The notes beneath the pieces were generated by a model. It did no database searches. It was not told the origin of the DNA and was given only the letters and a program-made list of their open reading frames with translations. A program made the position numbers and the translations under genes. DNA of 64,000 bases from Candidatus Eiseniibacteriota bacterium (GTDB taxonomy: Bacteria; Eisenbacteria; RBG-16-71-46): contig CAVQXP010000001.1 in NCBI GenBank assembly GCA_963717935.1, positions 32,001 through 96,000 on the forward strand. The letters are read 5' to 3'. Below, piece after piece: positions 2,682 to 13,360 of the stretch; position 1 is the stretch's first letter; every line of letters starts with the position of its first letter.

Positions 2682-4364
2682 GTGCTCGAACGCCTGGTCA
2701 TCCGCGACCTCGTGCTGGTGGAGCGGGCCGAGGTGGAATTCGGCCCGGGCCTCAACGTGGTGACCGGGGAGACCGGCGCGGGCAAGTCCCTGCTGGTGCA
2801 GGCCGTGGACCTGCTCACCGGCGGCCGCGCCGACCCGGGCGTCGTGCGCGTGGGCGCGAAGGCCGCGGTGGTCGAGGGCGAGTTCCGCCCTTCGCCGCGC
2901 GCCGCCCTGCGGGTCGGGCCGCTGCTCGCATCGTGGGGCATCGAGTGCGACGGTGAGAGCCTCATCCTCCGGCGCGAGGTCCAGACCGGCGGCAAGAGCC
3001 GTGCCCTGGTGAACCAGTCGGCGGTGACGCGAGGCGCGCTGCGGGAGCTGTGCGAGGCGCTCGCGGACCTCCATGGCCAGCACGAGCACCAGAGTCTGCT
3101 GCGCGCCGACGCGGGCCTCGAGACCCTCGATCGGCTCGCGGCGTTCGAGGGTGAGAGCGCCCGCTACGCGCAGGCGCTGTCCGCCTGGCGCGCTGCCGCC
3201 TCCCAACTCGAGGCGCTCGAGCGCTCGCTGGCGACGTACGCCGAGCGGCGCGAGTGGATGGAGCAGGCGGCGCTCGAGCTGGACGAGGCACGCCTGCGCG
3301 AGGGCGAGGACGACGAGCTCCGGCTCGAGGCCGCGCGCCGGGCCCACGCCGACCGCCTGCGCGAGCTGGTGGAGCAGGCGCTCGGGCGGCTCTCGGATGG
3401 CGAAGCGCCGGCCGTGGACGCCATCGCCCAGGCCGGGCGCGCGCTCGAGCAGGCGGCCGCGCTCGACCCGAGCCTCGCGGAGTCCCTGCCTGCGCTCGAC
3501 GAGGCGCGCATCGCCGCGACCGAGGTCGCGCGCGCTCTCGGCGAGTATGCCTCGCGCCTCGAGGCCGACCCGGCCGCGCTGGAGCAGATCGAGTCCCGGC
3601 GCGAGACGATCGCCCGGCTCGTGCGGAAGCACCGCCGCGACGTGCCCGCGCTGATCGCCTGGCGCGTGGAGCTGGGCCGTGAGCTCGCCACGGGGGAGGA
3701 CGCCGAGGCCGCGCTGTCGCGCGCGCGCGCCGCCGCGCAGGAGACGCACGCGGCCTGCCACGCCGCGGCGCGCGCCCTCTCGCGCAGACGTCAGGCGGCC
3801 GCGAAGGAGTGGGGGATGAGGCTCACGAAGGAGATGAAGCCGCTCGGGATGCAGCATGCGAGCCTCGGCTTCCGGGTCGAGCCGGACGACGGCCCGGAGC
3901 CCGCCTTCGCTGCGCACGGGCTCGACCAGGTCGAGATCATGTTCAGCGCCAACCCGGGCGAGCCTGCCCGGCCGCTGCAGCGGATCGTCTCGGGCGGCGA
4001 GCTTTCCAGGGTGATGCTGGCTCTGAAGGTAGCGCTGGAAGCCCAAGACCCCGTTGACCTTCTGCTGTTCGATGAAGTGGATTCCGGGATCGGCGGCGCG
4101 GTCGCCCAGGCGGTCGGGGAACGCCTCAAGCGCCTGGCGCGGCACCGCCAGGTCATCTGCGTGACCCACCTGCCGATGATCGCCGCCCTCGCCACCCATC
4201 ACCTGCGGGTGGACAAGTCCGTGGCGGCGGGCCGCACGGTGGCGCGCATCGTGGTGGTCGAGGACGGAGCGCGCGTCGAGGAACTCGCCCGGATGCTGGC
4301 CGGCGACCGCGTCACCGACACCACACGGCGTCAGGCCCGCGAGTTGCTGGGGGCGGGCGCGTGA
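2682..4364 (+). CDS. recN: DNA repair protein RecN
   Basis: TGETGAGKS Walker A, LHGQHEHQ, SGGELSRVMLAL, FDEVDSG and VTHLP. Confidence 0.97.
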   Translation: MLERLVIRDLVLVERAEVEFGPGLNVVTGETGAGKSLLVQAVDLLTGGRADPGVVRVGAKAAVVEGEFRPSPRAALRVGPLLASWGIECDGESLILRREVQTGGKSRALVNQSAVTRGALRELCEALADLHGQHEHQSLLRADAGLETLDRLAAFEGESARYAQALSAWRAAASQLEALERSLATYAERREWMEQAALELDEARLREGEDDELRLEAARRAHADRLRELVEQALGRLSDGEAPAVDAIAQAGRALEQAAALDPSLAESLPALDEARIAATEVARALGEYASRLEADPAALEQIESRRETIARLVRKHRRDVPALIAWRVELGRELATGEDAEAALSRARAAAQETHAACHAAARALSRRRQAAAKEWGMRLTKEMKPLGMQHASLGFRVEPDDGPEPAFAAHGLDQVEIMFSANPGEPARPLQRIVSGGELSRVMLALKVALEAQDPVDLLLFDEVDSGIGGAVAQAVGERLKRLARHRQVICVTHLPMIAALATHHLRVDKSVAAGRTVARIVVVEDGARVEELARMLAGDRVTDTTRRQARELLGAGA

Positions 4365-5848
4365 CGGCCGCGCACGACCGTCCCGTGACTCCCGGGCGCG
4401 ACGAGTTCCGCGCGCTCGCGGCGGGCGGCAGACATGTCCCGGTCTACCGCGACGTCCCCGCCGACCACGAGACGCCCGTCTCCGCCTTCCGCAAGCTCGA
4501 CGACGGTGCCCACGCCTTCCTGATCGAGAGTCTCGAGGGTGGCGAGAAGTGGGGGCGGTTCTCCGCGCTGGGGAGCAGGCCCACGCTGGTCTTCACGGCC
4601 CGCGGCGAGCGCTGCGAGATCCTCGAGGACGGTGTCACGCGCCCCTGCGCCGGCCCGCCCCTCGATGAGTTGCGGGACCTGCTCGCGGGACGCCACGCCG
4701 TCGCCCTGCCGGGACTGCCGCGCTTCTGCGGGGGCGCGGTGGGCTACCTCGGCTGCGGCGCCGCGCGCTGGTTCGGGCGACGGACCGCGAAGGCGCCCGC
4801 CGGGCCCGGGCCGCCCGATGCCGTGTTCCTCGTCACCGGCGTCGTCACCGTCTTCGACCACGTCGCGCACACCGTCAAGGTCGTGACCCACGCGCGCGGA
4901 GGGGACGACCCCGACGCGGCGTGGGCAGCGGCGGTCGGGCGCCTCGACGCGGAGATCGCGCGGCTCGAGGCCCCGCTGGCCTGGCCTGCGACGGCGGCCG
5001 GGACCCCGCTCGGGCAGCCCGCCTCGTCGTCCACGCCCGAGCGGTTCCGGTCCGCCGTCGAACGCGCCCGGGCGCACATCCGCGCGGGGGACGTGCTGCA
5101 GCTGACGCTCGCGCGGCGCCTGAGCGTGCCCGTCCAGGTGCCCGCCTTCGAGACCTACCGAGCGCTGCGCCTGACCGCCCCGTCGCCCTACAGCCACTTT
5201 CTCAGGCTCGGCGGCCTCTGTCTCGCGGGCTCCGCGCCCGGCTCGCTGGTGCGCCGCGCGGATGACGTGGTCGAGGCGCACATCCTCTCGGGGACGCGGC
5301 CGCGCGGCCGCACACCGGAGGAGGAGCGCAGGCTGGAGGAGGAGCTGCGCGCCGGGGAGCGGGAGCGCGCGGCCCACGCTCTGCGCGTGGACCTGAGCCG
5401 CAGCGACGTGGGCTGCGTGGCCGAGCCCGGCACCGTCGACACCAGCGAGTGGATGGAGGTGGAGCGCCATTCGCAGGCCATGCACCTGGGGTCCACCGTC
5501 CGTGGCCGGCCGCGGCAGGACGCCGGCCCGCTGGACCTGCTGGGGGCCTGCTTCCCCGCCGGCGGCGACTGCGGCGTGCCCCGGCCCCGGGCCCTGGAAC
5601 TCATCGAGGAGCTGGAGCCGGCGTCGCGCGGGGTCCACGCCGGGGCGGTCGGATACTTCGACCTTCGAGGCGGCCTGGACCTGTGCAGCGCCGCGCACAC
5701 GCTGGTCCTCGCCGACGGGCGCGCCGACTGGAGCGCGGGGGCCGTGATCGCCGCGGACACCGACCCCGAGGCGGCGTGGCGCGAGACCCAGGACCAGGCC
5801 CGCGGGCCGTGGCTCGCCCTTCAGCGCGCCACGGGAGCCTCGCGATGA
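4361..5848 (+). CDS. trpE: Anthranilate synthase component I homolog, catalytically degenerate (TrpE*)
   Basis: ETPVSAFRKL, LIES, GRFS, PRFCGGAVGY, PSPY, GTRPRG, FPAG and GAVGYF scaffold motifs are present. Active-site residues are substituted (see findings). GTGA overlap with recN. Confidence 0.9.
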   Translation: MTAAHDRPVTPGRDEFRALAAGGRHVPVYRDVPADHETPVSAFRKLDDGAHAFLIESLEGGEKWGRFSALGSRPTLVFTARGERCEILEDGVTRPCAGPPLDELRDLLAGRHAVALPGLPRFCGGAVGYLGCGAARWFGRRTAKAPAGPGPPDAVFLVTGVVTVFDHVAHTVKVVTHARGGDDPDAAWAAAVGRLDAEIARLEAPLAWPATAAGTPLGQPASSSTPERFRSAVERARAHIRAGDVLQLTLARRLSVPVQVPAFETYRALRLTAPSPYSHFLRLGGLCLAGSAPGSLVRRADDVVEAHILSGTRPRGRTPEEERRLEEELRAGERERAAHALRVDLSRSDVGCVAEPGTVDTSEWMEVERHSQAMHLGSTVRGRPRQDAGPLDLLGACFPAGGDCGVPRPRALELIEELEPASRGVHAGAVGYFDLRGGLDLCSAAHTLVLADGRADWSAGAVIAADTDPEAAWRETQDQARGPWLALQRATGASR

Positions 5849-6437
5849 TCGGGGTCATCGACAACCACGGCGCCTTCATCGGCAGCCTGCTGCAGTACCT
5901 GGCCACGCTCGGTGCACGCTTCGAGGTCCACGCGAACGACGCCATCACGGCCGAAGCGCTGGGCGCGCGTCCGATCGAGGGCCTGGTGCTGTCGTCCGGG
6001 CCGGGGGATCCGACGGCTGCCGGCGTGACGCCCGAAGCGATCCGCCGGTTCGCCGGCCGCGTGCCCATCCTGGGCATCGGCCTCGCTCACCAGGCTCTGG
6101 CCCAGGTCTACGGCGCGAAGCTCGCACCGGCCCCGGACCTCCTGCACGGCACGACGAGCCCCGTGCTGCACCGGGGCCGGGGCCTCTTCGCCGGTCTCGA
6201 GAACCCCTTCGCGGCAGCGCGCTATCATGCGCAGGTCGTGGAGCGCGAGTCCCTGCCCCGCACCCTCGAGATCACGGCCTGGACCCCCCAGGGGGAGATC
6301 ATGGGGCTGCGACATCGCGATCACGAGTGCTGGGGTGTACAGTTCCCGCCCCAGTCCATCCTGACCTGCCCGGGCCTCAGGCTCGTGGAGAACTTCCTTG
6401 TCGCTGTGCCGCCATCACAAGGGAGGTACCCCAGTGA
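5845..6437 (+). CDS. trpG: Anthranilate synthase component II (class I glutamine amidotransferase) homolog lacking the catalytic triad (TrpG*); 3' end ambiguous
   Basis: MIGVIDN.., SGPGDP, PILGIGLAHQ, ARYH, GVQFPPQSILT, LVENFL. ATGA overlap with trpE. An indel near 6395-6435 leaves either a GTGA-coupled stop or a TrpG-TrpD fusion. Confidence 0.85.
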
Positions 6438-7442
6438 TCCGCATGGCCATCGCACGCGCGGTGCTCCGCGAGGACCTGCCGCGGGAGCTGGCGCGCGCCA
6501 GCATGGAGCAGATCCTCGACGGCGACGCCACGCCGGCGCAGATCGGCGCCCTCGCCGTGGCCCTGCGCATGAAGGGCGAGACTCCCGACGGAGATCGCCA
6601 GCATGGCCGAGGCGATGCGCGAGCGCGTGCCACCCATCCGCACCAAGCGCGCGCCGCTGCTCGACACCTGCGGCACCGGCGGCGACAACGCCGGCACGTT
6701 CAACATCTCGACCACCTCGGCCATCGTGGTGGCGTCGTGCGGCGTGGCGGTGGCCAAGCACGGCAACCGCGCGGTCTCGAGCCGCACCGGGAGCGCCGAC
6801 GTGCTCGAGGCCCTGGGCGTGGGCCTCGATCTGACCCCGGAGAGCGCCGCGCGCTCGCTCGACCTGCTGGGCATCACGTTCCTGTTCGCGCCCAACTACC
6901 ACGCCGCGCTGCGCCACGCCGCGGGGCCGCGTCGCGAGGTCGGCATCCGCACGATCCTCGACCTGCTCGGCCCGCTCACCAACCCGGCCGGCGCGCGGCG
7001 GCAGCTGATCGGCGTCTTCTCCGACCGTCTGGTGCGCCGCATCGCCGAGGTCCTGAAGATCCTCGGCAGCGAGCGGGCCTGGGTCGTGCACGGCCTCGAC
7101 GGACTGGACGAGCTGACGGTGCGGGGACGCTCTCACGTCGCCGAGCTGGACCGCGGCCAGATCCGCGAATTCGAGGTGGACCCCGGGCCCCTGGGTCTCG
7201 CGCACGCCGAGCGCAGTGGCCTCGAGGGCGGGGACGCGGCCGCCAACGCCGTGCGGATCCGCGCCGTGCTGGCGGGGGAGAAGGGGCCGGCGCGCGACAT
7301 CGTCGCGCTCAACGCGGGTGGCGCGCTGGTCGTGGCCGGCGTGGTGGGGGATCTCGCCGGGGGCGTGGCGCAGGCCCAGGAGGCGATCGACAGCGGGCGT
7401 GCCGCGCGCAAGCTCGACGACCTCACGGCCTTCCGGGACTGA
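6434..7442 (+). CDS. trpD: Anthranilate phosphoribosyltransferase (one apparent +1 indel near 6590)
   Basis: GGAGG SD before GTG 6434. QIGALAVALRMKGET, DTCGTGGD, FNIST, KHGNRAVSSRTGSADVLEALG and GLDE motifs. Confidence 0.93.
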
Positions 7443-7466
7443 CCTTCATCCGAGAGGGGGCCGGAC

Positions 7467-8105
7467 ATGTTCTGCATCCGCTGCGGCGCCAACCTGCCCG
7501 AAGACGCGGCATTCTGTGCATCCTGCGGAGCCCCCGTCACCAGCGGCACGGCCGCGGCCGCGGCGGCCTCACCGCCGCCCGGCGCGGTCTCCGGGCCCTG
7601 GGCGGCCGTTCCGGCCGAACTGCCCGCGGTCCGCGCGACACGGGACTACAGCGGTTTCTGGCGCCGCTTCTGGGGCCATGTGATCGACCGCTTCATCCTC
7701 GGCGTGGTGTTCGTGCCCGTGAGCTTCATGGTCCTCGTGCCGATGATGGCCACCGAATCGGCCGGATGGACGGACACCGATCTGCCGGCCGAGGCGATCA
7801 CCGCGCTCCTGGGGGCCATCCTCGCCGTGGCATTCTTCGAGCTGTTGGGCAGCTGGCTCTACAGCGCGCTCCTGCAGAGTTCGTCGAGGCAGGCCACGCT
7901 CGGCCAGCTCGCGCTCGGCATCCACGTCACGGATCTCGAGGGACGGCGTGTCTCCTTCGCCCGCGCGAGCGGGCGCCACTTCGCGACCGTGCTCACCGGC
8001 CTCACCTTCGGCATCGGCTACCTCATCATGCTCTTCACGACGAGGAAGCAGACCCTGCACGACCTGATCGGCGGCACCGTCGTCGTGCGAACCGATCCCG
8101 CGTGA
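7467..8105 (+). CDS. Zinc-ribbon plus RDD family membrane protein
   Basis: MFCIRCG..FCASCG N-terminus, then GFWRRFWGHVID, QATLGQ..G.HV and KQTLHDLIGGTVVV. Confidence 0.88.
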   Translation: MFCIRCGANLPEDAAFCASCGAPVTSGTAAAAAASPPPGAVSGPWAAVPAELPAVRATRDYSGFWRRFWGHVIDRFILGVVFVPVSFMVLVPMMATESAGWTDTDLPAEAITALLGAILAVAFFELLGSWLYSALLQSSSRQATLGQLALGIHVTDLEGRRVSFARASGRHFATVLTGLTFGIGYLIMLFTTRKQTLHDLIGGTVVVRTDPA

Positions 8106-9712
8106 GCCGCGGGCGCCTCCCTGTTGGTGCTCCCGCCCGCGAACCCCGCCTGAGCGCGGCAGGCGGCACGGCGCGGCGCGAGGTCCTCGTGGACCTGGTC
8201 GCGATCCTCGGCGCGTGGGTCGTCTTCGCCTTCGCCCTCGGACGCGGCTCCCTGGTCACCGCCTACGACGTCTTCCGCGACATGTCCTATGCGCAGGCCA
8301 TCCTCCAGGGGCACCTCTCGCAGGACCCCTCGATCCCGGGCTTTCGCGCGTGGTATCCGCCGGGGAACCCGCTCACCTTCGCGGGGCTGGCGACCCTGAC
8401 GCGGATCTCACCGGTGGATCTCTACGCGACCAGCCTCTACTGGCTCGGCTGGATCAATCCGGTTGCCCTCTATCTTCTGGTGCGCTCCCGTTGGGGCCGC
8501 GCCACGGCGCTTGTGTCCCTGGCCACCGTCCTCCTCGGTTCGTTCTGGTGGTTCACCCACATGGCCATGCCGATGGCGAGCATCCAGGGCGTCGCGCTGG
8601 GCCTGCTCGCCCTGCTCGCCTGGACGACCGATCGCGGCCGCGGGTTCCGCCGCGCGGCCCTCACGGGCGTGCTCCTGGCGCTGGCGATCTGGCACCATCC
8701 GATCTGCGGAGCGCTGGCGATGGGCAGCATCGTCGTACACGGAGCGGTCGCCGCGTTGCTCCCGGCGAACCGTGGCGACCCGGTCGCGTCCCGCTTCGAA
8801 CTCGCGAAGAGGGCCGCGCTGGCCAGCGCCGTGGGCCTCCTGCTCGCCGCACCGCTGCTCCTGGGCCAACTCGGCCTGTCCCGGACGAACGCGGCGCCGC
8901 ACCACTGGTTCGCGCCCGAACTCCACGACCCGCGCTTCGCGTTCCACCTGCATGCGCCGCTGATCGTGCCGCTCGGCCTCGTCGGGCTGTGGCTCGCTGC
9001 GCGCCGCTGGCGCGAGGAGGGCTGGCTCGTGGCCTATTTCGGCATCGGGCTCGCCGGGCAGATCGCCGGATACCTCGGCCATGACGCCGGATGGGGGATC
9101 CCCTGGGCGCTGCCGCACGAGTTCCAGTGGCACGAGCAACTCGCCCTGATGGTCGCAGCGGCCATCGCCACCGTCCGGCTTGCCACCTGGCTCGCCGCCG
9201 GCGTGCGGGGCGCACGGCGGGACCTGGCGCGTCGAGCCGGCATCGCCACGCTCCTCGCGCTGAGCACGGGACCCGCCCTGTTCAACCTGCCGCTCGCGAG
9301 TTCCTATCTGATGCGGCTCGACGAGCGTTGGCAGGCCTCGCTGGCGACGGCCCGCTGGATCCGCGCGAACACGCCCCTCGAGGCCGTGTTCGCGTGCCCG
9401 CCGGAGACGGGCTACTTCCTCTCCGGGCTCACCGGGCGCCGCTGCCTCGCACTGCCTCCCGGGCACATGAATCCCGCACTCGACGCGGAGGCACGTTACG
9501 CCGACGTGGCCGAGCTGTTGAACACGCCCGACGAGGAAGTCTTCCGGCGCCTGGCGGCGCGGTACGGTGCCACGCATCTTCTCGTCACGCCCGCGCCGCG
9601 CTTCCTGGCCCGCGCCCGGGAGACCTACGCCCGCTGGCGGTGTCTCGAGCCCGCCGGTCTCGCGGACAGCACGGTGCTCCTCTATCGCATCCGGCGGCCC
9701 ACGGGCCGCTGA
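8102..9712 (+). CDS. Polytopic membrane protein, probable GT-C-fold glycosyltransferase
   Basis: GTGA overlap with the RDD gene. About 10-12 hydrophobic helices, an acidic first loop (AYDVFRD..DP..WYPPG) and a soluble C-terminus with WIRANTP..GYFLSGLTGR. Confidence 0.6.
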   Translation: MSRGRLPVGAPAREPRLSAAGGTARREVLVDLVAILGAWVVFAFALGRGSLVTAYDVFRDMSYAQAILQGHLSQDPSIPGFRAWYPPGNPLTFAGLATLTRISPVDLYATSLYWLGWINPVALYLLVRSRWGRATALVSLATVLLGSFWWFTHMAMPMASIQGVALGLLALLAWTTDRGRGFRRAALTGVLLALAIWHHPICGALAMGSIVVHGAVAALLPANRGDPVASRFELAKRAALASAVGLLLAAPLLLGQLGLSRTNAAPHHWFAPELHDPRFAFHLHAPLIVPLGLVGLWLAARRWREEGWLVAYFGIGLAGQIAGYLGHDAGWGIPWALPHEFQWHEQLALMVAAAIATVRLATWLAAGVRGARRDLARRAGIATLLALSTGPALFNLPLASSYLMRLDERWQASLATARWIRANTPLEAVFACPPETGYFLSGLTGRRCLALPPGHMNPALDAEARYADVAELLNTPDEEVFRRLAARYGATHLLVTPAPRFLARARETYARWRCLEPAGLADSTVLLYRIRRPTGR

Positions 9713-9814
9713 GCGACGCCGGGTGGGCCGGGCGGGCGCAGAGGGCACGCCACCTGGCCGCCTGCGCGCGCGTTCAGGGCCCGCCGCCCGGACCCGTTCC
9801 GACGCGCCCTCCGC

Positions 9815-12321: not shown

Positions 12322-13360
12322 ATGGCGGACAGTGTCGGCATCGCGGTGGTGGGCACCGGCGATTGGGGCGCCAATCTCGTGCGCAACTTCGCCAGCCTGC
12401 CGGGCAGCCGGCTCGGCGGCCCTGCACGACAACGATGCCCAGCGCCTGAGGAAGTCCGCGGCCCAGTACCCCGAGGCCCGCGCCGTGGCCTCGCTGGAGG
12501 AGCTGGCCGCGCGGCCGGACGTGCAGGGGGTGGTCGTGGCCGCCTCGGCCGTGAGCCACTACACCCTGGCCAGGACCCTGCTCGAGGCCGGTAAGGACGT
12601 GTTCGTCGAGAAGCCCCTGGCCCTGAGCGTGGCCCACGCCGAGGAACTGGTGCGGATCGCCCGCGAGCGCGGGCGCATCCTCATGGTCGGCCACCTGCTG
12701 CTGTACCACCCGGCCGTCCGCTACCTCAAGGACATGGTCGAGCGCGGGGAGCTCGGCGACCTGTTCTACATCTACTCCCAGCGCGTCAACCTGGGGAAGG
12801 TGCGGCGCGACGAGAACGCGCTCTGGAGCTTCGCCCCCCACGATCTGTCGGTGGTCCTGCACCTGCTGGGCATGGAGCCCATCGACGTCGTGGCGCGCGG
12901 CTCGGCCTTCCTGCAGGGCGCGGTCGAGGACGTGGTGTTCGTGGACCTGCGCTTCCCGGACGGCAAGCTGGCCCACGTCCACGTGTCCTGGCTCGACCCC
13001 CACAAGCTGCGCAAGTTCACCGTCGTCGGCAGCCGGAAGATGGTGGTCTTCGACGACATGGAAGCCAGCGAGAAGGTCAGGATCTACGACAAGGGCGTGG
13101 ACCGCGCGGGCGAGGTCGTGTCGTACGGCGACGCGCTCACCGTCCGCAGCGGCGACATCCTCATCCCCAGGATCTCGCTGCAGGAGCCGCTGCGGCTGGA
13201 GTGCCAGCATTTCGTCGACTGCGTGCGCGACCACAGGCGCCGCTCACCGACGGGACGGGCGGCCTGCAGGTGGTGCGCGTGCTCGCCGCCGCACAGGCCT
13301 CGCTCGAGCAGGGCGGCATACCCGTACGCCTGGCGCCCGGCCGGGCAGGAGGCATCATGA
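12322..13360 (+). CDS. Gfo/Idh/MocA oxidoreductase, WbpB/WlbA-like (indels near 12415, 13240 and probably 13335)
   Basis: IAVVGTGDWGANLVRNF, VFVEKPLA, MVGHLLLYHPAV, APHDLS and HVSWLDP. Confidence 0.85.

Follow-up and report, generated by a model that had tools for sequence, protein, structure and literature searches.

Why would a bacterium keep, under selection and directly in front of the gene for anthranilate phosphoribosyltransferase (TrpD), the two genes of an anthranilate synthase whose active sites appear to be gone? The question is raised by a stretch of 64,000 nucleotides from a Candidatus Eiseniibacteriota bacterium (assembly GCA_963717935.1, contig CAVQXP010000001.1, positions 32,001 to 96,000 of the forward strand), hereafter the window. 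In it we confirmed the block recN-trpE*-trpG*-trpD, with the trp genes at 4361-7442 on the + strand directly after recN; asterisks mark the synthase genes with replaced catalytic residues. The genome (G000; 93% complete, 5 contigs) belongs to a group of uncultured soil and sediment bacteria, and its closest named relatives are metagenome-assembled genomes (MAGs) labelled Candidatus Eisenbacteria. We searched 41 related genomes and recovered orthologous trpE-trpG-trpD blocks from 30 loci. The observation of a dead pair beside TrpD, first made from the window alone, stands, and is now stronger than a reading of the sequence could show: the pair can be described as a pseudoenzyme derived from a biosynthetic enzyme, probably with a non-enzymatic role. 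The three genes are laid out as follows.

4361..5848, + strand: trpE*, anthranilate synthase component I homologue, 495 amino acids (aa) (PF00425, 2.8e-60; PF04715, 6.9e-22)
5845..6437 in the ancestral frame, stop included, + strand: trpG*, class-I glutamine amidotransferase (GATase) homologue (PF00117, 2.7e-41)
6434..7442, + strand: trpD, anthranilate phosphoribosyltransferase, in two frames, 6434-6589 and 6591-7442 (PF02885, 2.9e-15, for the N part; PF00591, 1.4e-90, for the C part)

The first-pass annotation had described three overlapping genes in the order trpE-trpG-trpD. The order at 4361-7442 is correct, but the genes are not intact as written, since trpD is split and the stop of trpG* is lost, which that annotation had missed.

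TrpE* retains the chorismate-binding fold and the N-terminal TrpE domain (PF00425 and PF04715) and falls below the equivalog cut-offs, with 358.7 bits against 517.7 for TIGR00564 and 388 against 693 for NF010086. Its conserved motifs are altered from GSSPE to GSAPG, EKERAEH to ERERAAH, RND to RSD, GTVSGAPK to GGDCGVPR and EWEETLNK to AWRETQDQ, which removes the general-acid Glu (SPE to APG), two of the four Mg-site Glu and the Lys of GAPK (GVPR). In MbtI the general acid is Glu252, the Mg2+-site residues are Glu294, Glu297, Glu431 and Glu434, and the lysine is Lys438 (PMC8008425). Mapped onto these by motif and spacing rather than by a printed alignment, TrpE* would have lost the equivalents of Glu252, Glu297, Glu431 and Lys438 and kept those of Glu294 and Glu434.

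TrpG* has the GATase fold and scores above its subfamily cut-off (TIGR00566, 162.6 bits against 121.05). The catalytic triad, given for PabA as C79/H168/E170 (PMC7617670), is replaced throughout in the window: Cys by Gly, His by Pro and Glu by Gln. The window reads GIGLAHQ and FPPQS where 26 of the 27 other relatives, among them the unpublished genome G026, read GVCLGHQ and FHPES; at the 27th locus (G019) the Cys region is frameshifted and FHPES is readable. The dead TrpG of G000, G004 and G005 shares the pattern GIGL(A/G)H(Q/H), with Pro or Ala for His and Gln for Glu in FHPES, and the triad is absent from 9/9 TrpG* sequences (three genomes and six metagenome loci).

These replacements are the property of a clade. 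Among the orthologous loci the dead TrpE* type is confined to G000, G005 (82% TrpE identity) and G004 (80%), and the 27 others have canonical residues wherever they are readable. In a search of 5.8 billion proteins, the dead pattern was present in 25 cluster representatives (90% level; P0002-P0025 and P0032), which are 487-503 aa long and share 64-100% identity with the window TrpE*; the canonical type starts at <=64% identity. Within the 25, the general-acid Glu is Gly in 96%, the two Mg-site Glu are Ala in 92% and 100%, and the Lys is Arg in 100%. Ten dead-type metagenome loci show the order recN-trpE*-trpG*-trpD wherever the contig extends, and trpD accompanies the dead pair in 9/9 loci with cover. 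The claim that both synthase subunits have lost their catalytic residues thus extends clade-wide, and the same dead three-gene block, which had been proposed as a check, is present in G004, G005 and the metagenome loci. Recent decay of trpE and trpG in a single genome was ruled out, as the same dead residues occur across the clade.

What TrpE* has kept is the allosteric tryptophan motif. The motif of Mycobacterium tuberculosis TrpE, 53-LLESX10S-67 (PMC6437058), is present in the window as LIES-X10-S, and in the 25 dead-clade members four of its five defined positions (the first L, the E and both S) are conserved at 100% and the second L at 88%. Tyr is also found at the equivalents of Trp-pocket Tyr284 (84% of the dead clade) and Tyr445 (96%). 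At TrpE* residue 432 (window ~5654-5656), His is found in 100% of 43 canonical sequences and Tyr in 96% of the 25 dead ones. This change matches Trp-pocket Tyr445 of the M. tuberculosis enzyme and has become fixed contrary to GC pressure. More broadly, of 297 positions that are invariant in canonical TrpE (>=95% of the 43 sequences), 172 hold the same residue in the 25 dead-clade sequences (>=90%), 19 have switched and 106 are variable, the loss of conservation clustering at 331-363 and 397-462.

The genes are evolving as coding sequences. By pairwise Nei-Gojobori (NG86) counting within the dead clade, the median ratio of nonsynonymous to synonymous rates (dN/dS) was 0.38 for TrpE* (10 sequences, 45 pairs) and 0.31 for TrpG* (9 sequences, 36 pairs), compared with 0.22 for RecN (9 sequences, 36 pairs) and 0.16 for TrpD (7 sequences, 21 pairs), the lowest of the block; in intact relatives the values were 0.21-0.25 (TrpE) and 0.14-0.20 (TrpG). 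Equal nonsynonymous and synonymous rates were rejected in the six pairs tested (Fisher p 1e-5 to 1e-12). Residues 20-200 of TrpE* have a dN/dS of 0.31 against 0.25 in intact relatives, and residues 286-480 one of 0.37 against 0.15, so that the N-terminal half, with its allosteric and interface regions, is under near-normal constraint, and constraint is relaxed over what was the active site. On the G000 branch, nonsynonymous and synonymous codon changes number 8:19 in TrpE*, 6:15 in TrpD and 16:35 in RecN; TrpD shows no relaxation there. Both trpE* and trpG* are kept as full-length, translationally coupled open reading frames (ORFs) under purifying selection. The suggestion that the pair is retained rather than decaying is borne out: because the dead residues are common to a diverged clade, dN/dS is ~0.3-0.4, indels are absent and the Trp motif is kept, recent decay can be rejected, and the comparison supports TrpE* and TrpG* being catalytically dead and not freshly decaying.

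A sister lineage shows what happens when the pair is removed. Three genomes of the same genus (G003, G006 and G007; 81-87% complete) gave no match to trpE, trpC, trpF, trpA or classical trpB. Each has a full-length trpD (L214, L215 and L213, respectively; ~403 bits to TIGR01245) that follows recN by 130-330 bp, with trpE* and most of trpG* deleted. The spacer of G006 encodes the last TrpG residues, with the dead-type 'PP.S' for HPES, and ends in a GTGA overlap with trpD. In a TrpD tree the three group with the dead-pair clade as its sister (support 100/98) and the intact G001 and G002 fall outside; the TrpD of the three has a dN/dS of 0.12-0.22. Tree, dead-type remnant and constrained TrpD together indicate that inactivation preceded the deletion of the dead genes in this lineage. 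Selection on TrpD is strong even where every other step of the pathway is missing, and since TrpD is kept alone in these three, it does not depend on TrpE*G*; any regulation by the pair would be dispensable and not obligatory.

Among the papers listed by a literature search on orphan trpD, none was pertinent. In Salmonella work, TrpD is reportedly able to make phosphoribosylamine, bypassing PurF; retention of TrpD as a PurF substitute was ruled out, as purF is present in G000, G003, G006 and G007. Of the 41 genomes, 39 have a purF above the TIGR01134 cut-off; the two without are G004, a single contig, and G005, which is 96% complete. Outside the genus, G039, from another family of the class, has a trpD of 384 bits and no match to trpE, trpC or trpA.

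The rest of the pathway is missing from the window genome. In most relatives the operon runs on as trpD-trpC-..-trpB, with trpA elsewhere. G000 gave no match to trpC, trpF or trpA and has no classical trpB; its best trpB match is of the TrpB2 type, a 'TrpB-like PLP enzyme' (PLP, pyridoxal phosphate) at C4:~1563244-1564560 (L012 1333-2652; TIGR01415, 660 bits, cut-off 519). The absence of trpC, trpF, trpB and trpA noted for the window therefore extends to the genome, with TrpB2 as the sole trpB-like match. This TrpB2 may let tryptophan arise from external indole. That TrpD channels scavenged anthranilate towards tryptophan finds no support here, as there is no trpF or trpC to take its product. 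No second intact trpEG was found in G000, another check that had been proposed: the remaining chorismate-binding/GATase pair (on C4) is PabB/PabA-like, and guaA is the window's other GATase.

G004 and G005, the two other genomes with the dead pair, do have a complete second operon, trpE2-G2-D2-C-F-B-A with 3-deoxy-D-arabino-heptulosonate 7-phosphate (DAHP) synthase, on one contig in G004 (C1:1756586-1763073, L051) and across contigs C38 and C37 in G005 (L052). TrpE2, with canonical motifs, shares 43-44% identity with the window TrpE*, and TrpG2 and TrpD2 are full length. That this operon lies hidden in an assembly gap of G000 was ruled out: its flanks are ~80 bp apart inside contig C2 (28568-28649), and their contiguity makes its absence real.

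We therefore come to what the pair may do. We propose, with a probability of roughly 0.45, that what survives in the block is a conserved part of the group's ancestral trp operon (trpE-G-D-C..B), in which TrpE*-TrpG* has been retained as a non-catalytic accessory. In an ancestor of one subclade, the locus lost trpC..trpB, and catalysis was lost from TrpE and TrpG. The pair would survive as a non-catalytic heterodimer binding tryptophan or a related ligand, as a dispensable accessory that most likely modulates TrpD, to whose gene it is coupled, and TrpD itself would act outside classical tryptophan synthesis. A regulatory role towards TrpD is possible: the pair always occurs with trpD, to which translation couples it; its Trp site is retained; and it is constrained in G000, which has no active synthase. 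Prediction of a complex between TrpE* (residues 25-495) plus TrpG* and TrpD as partner gave no answer (score 0.00) and speaks neither for nor against it. A more specific version, in which TrpE*-TrpG* is a tryptophan- (or indole- or anthranilate-) sensing pseudoenzyme gating an orphan TrpD with a job outside tryptophan synthesis, we regard as doubtful. If true, it would be the first instance in which both subunits of a biosynthetic enzyme together became a ligand sensor serving the enzyme that once followed them in a vanished pathway.

Several observations weigh against an accessory role. The equivalent of Trp-pocket D453 is just 60% conserved and the residue after SPY is altered. Most active-site replacements in TrpE* are single-base AT-to-GC changes, the G+C content at second codon positions (GC2) of trpE* has risen from 0.48 to 0.57, and 106/297 positions invariant in intact TrpE now vary, a pattern expected from relaxed selection under GC pressure. 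The dN/dS values are pairwise counts and not a codon model on a tree, and all genomes compared are MAGs. The sister lineage has kept TrpD without the pair. Finally, if the frameshifting insertions described below were real, TrpD and the tail of TrpG* would be broken in G000 itself.

The main rival to a regulatory role is that TrpE* and TrpG* are translated spacer or a slow relic, with no protein function, their frames staying open only because expression reaches trpD through them, by transcription and translational coupling. Frameshift and nonsense changes would be polar and hence purged, which explains the lack of indels, and the leftover constraint would reflect avoidance of misfolded or toxic products. 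The architecture fits, with 4-nt overlaps at recN/trpE*, trpE*/trpG* and trpG*/trpD both in the window and in L138, and all that the sister lineage spared of the pair is the 3' end of trpG*, which overlaps the start of trpD. The relaxed catalytic half, with replacements drifting GC-ward, fits as well. However, polarity acts on stops and frameshifts and not on missense changes, so the missense constraint is left unexplained; 172 of the 297 formerly invariant positions are still at least 90% conserved, 19 have moved to a new conserved residue, and the H-to-Y switch in the Trp pocket opposes GC pressure. We consider this explanation somewhat unlikely.

A second rival concerns the window itself. 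No single uninterrupted trpD frame exists there as given, owing to one extra base at ~6588-6590: positions 5-47 of TIGR01245 correspond to 6434-6589 and positions 48-329 to 6591-7439, the two parts being contiguous on the model. The first-pass annotation had taken TrpD as apparently active, with its motifs kept. The family signature is indeed there (the C part scores 354.9 bits against the TIGR01245 cut-off of 199), and so is strong constraint, but the ORF is not intact in the window as given. The 3' end of trpG* is affected as well.

~6399-6401 and 6417, + strand: two single-base insertions in the 3' end of trpG* (blastn against G005 and G004)

The extra bases at ~6400 and 6417 shift the last 12 codons of trpG* twice and put the normal stop (6435-6437) out of frame, and the trpG* ORF as written stays in frame 1 and extends to 6834. 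Were the three insertions real, G000 would, after the loss of the second operon, be losing trpD and the trpG* tail, the block being on its way out. They are present in the assembly, they are not simple long-homopolymer errors, and the rest of the pathway is absent from this genome.

The comparative evidence points the other way. In 6/6 relatives with cover (G004, G005, L135, L136, L138 and L141) trpD is in one frame, and the three insertions were not found in G004, G005, four metagenome loci or contigs of four public runs. A 7.7-kb contig of run X3 (~93% identical) covers 4300-7598 without any of the three; contigs of X1, X2 and X4 are without the 6589 insertion, and an X4 contig also without the ~6400/6417 pair. 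Runs X1-X4 hold relatives and not this strain (best share 0.20), so they show the insertions to be absent elsewhere and do not judge G000. Against G005 we counted 4 indels in 8,089 aligned bases, with 0 in trpE*. Over 22.6 kb, G000 has 14 one-base insertions versus 3 deletions relative to G005, or 12 versus 1 once adjacent compensating pairs are removed. One-base insertions of the same non-homopolymer type also disrupt pyrG and kdsA, three of them lying within 325 bp (G000 C2 408.5-411.1 kb, L006). Because the insertions are absent in relatives, TrpD is unrelaxed on the G000 branch (6:15) and pyrG and kdsA are broken alike, we read all three as probable assembly artefacts; sister genomes that lack the pathway have also held on to TrpD strongly. 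That the insertions are real is accordingly unlikely.

The excess of single-base insertions in G000 is seen against both G005 and G004, including window 6399-6590 and 7461, and gene calls from this assembly need caution. A crude scan for frame switches by G+C content at third codon positions listed 265 candidates in 3.02 Mb of G000 and, for other loci, 10 in 278 kb; it missed the trpD shift and is suggestive only. In the few-contig assembly G019 (L024), trpG, trpD and trpC are each divided between frames, probably by assembly indels too.

Two further explanations fare worse than an accessory role. That the dead paralogues regulate the active TrpE2 and TrpG2 through mixed complexes would account for G004 and G005 carrying both the dead pair and the second operon, and for G003, G006 and G007 carrying neither, but G000 lacks that operon, with a clean junction, and its TrpE* branch still shows few nonsynonymous changes (8:19); the informative genomes are only six, and related, and we hold this to be very unlikely. 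Least probable of all, by a little, is that TrpE*, with or without TrpG*, has gained a new catalytic activity on chorismate or another substrate: 19 formerly invariant positions now hold another residue at >=90%, several of them in the old active site (S to C at 404, K to R at 408), but TrpE* lacks the general acid along with half the Mg site, neighbouring active-site positions are highly variable in the clade (the residue after H-A-L; 402, 426 and 446), and most switches are GC-ward single-base changes.

The neighbours of the trp genes complete the locus.

2682..4364, + strand: recN, ORF of 560 aa, a context gene named by reading its translation, without a family search
7467..8105, + strand: zinc-ribbon and RDD-family membrane protein, downstream neighbour (PF06271, 1.8e-22; PF13240, 2.5e-07)

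Synteny with recN holds in all relatives with upstream cover, and the overlap of the recN stop with the trpE* start is GTGA. The G+C content of the region is 72-75%, and spurious long ORFs are frequent in such DNA. Window 8090-9757 and 12352-13311 are missing from the syntenic region in G004; the former lies inside a large membrane-protein ORF region, where two ORFs tried gave no Pfam match.

Within one genus, then, there is a natural series: an intact operon; the dead pair with TrpD and a second operon; the dead pair with TrpD; and TrpD alone. It opens two questions to test, namely the purpose of the dead TrpE-TrpG pair and the job of TrpD in a cell without the other steps of the pathway. Standard annotation labels these dead genes 'anthranilate synthase', as the source names of the protein matches show, and metabolic reconstructions of these MAGs consequently score steps of tryptophan synthesis as present when they are not. 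Full-text literature searching turned up no description of an anthranilate synthase that is catalytically dead. Dead enzymes acting as regulators are well known in eukaryotes and, to our knowledge, rarely documented in bacterial amino-acid pathways.

How does the block compare with known systems? The canonical TrpE-TrpG enzymes of M. smegmatis (7bvd) and M. tuberculosis (5cwa) have the same two folds in the same gene order, with a full-length alignment (E 8e-83 to 7bvd), and TrpE* shares with canonical TrpE the N-terminal region and the LLESX10S motif. The dead pair differs from them in a TrpE equivalog score below the cut-off and in its replaced residues: the glutaminase triad in TrpG*, and in TrpE* the GAPK Lys, the general-acid Glu and two Glu of the Mg site. 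Bacteria that scavenge intermediates can have partial or remnant trp operons. As in those, part of the pathway is kept and the organism, which has TrpB2, is likely dependent on outside tryptophan or indole; unlike in those, no working sub-pathway remains (TrpD is without trpF and trpC), and the first two genes are kept though dead.

HisZ is a catalytically dead paralogue that serves as the regulatory subunit of HisG and is required for HisG(S) activity. The block resembles HisZ-HisG, as far as its sequences tell, in placing a dead enzyme homologue under selection beside a transferase that uses phosphoribosyl pyrophosphate; it differs in that TrpD is a full-length classical enzyme, kept alone in three related genomes. 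In the enteric TrpE-TrpG/D complex, tryptophan feedback passes to the phosphoribosyltransferase. There, too, trpE, trpG and trpD are adjacent and coupled, and a TrpE-like subunit, in the block a putatively Trp-binding one, is encoded next to TrpD. Unlike the enteric complex, the block encodes TrpG* and TrpD as separate proteins, its synthase is dead, and its TrpD persists alone in sister species.

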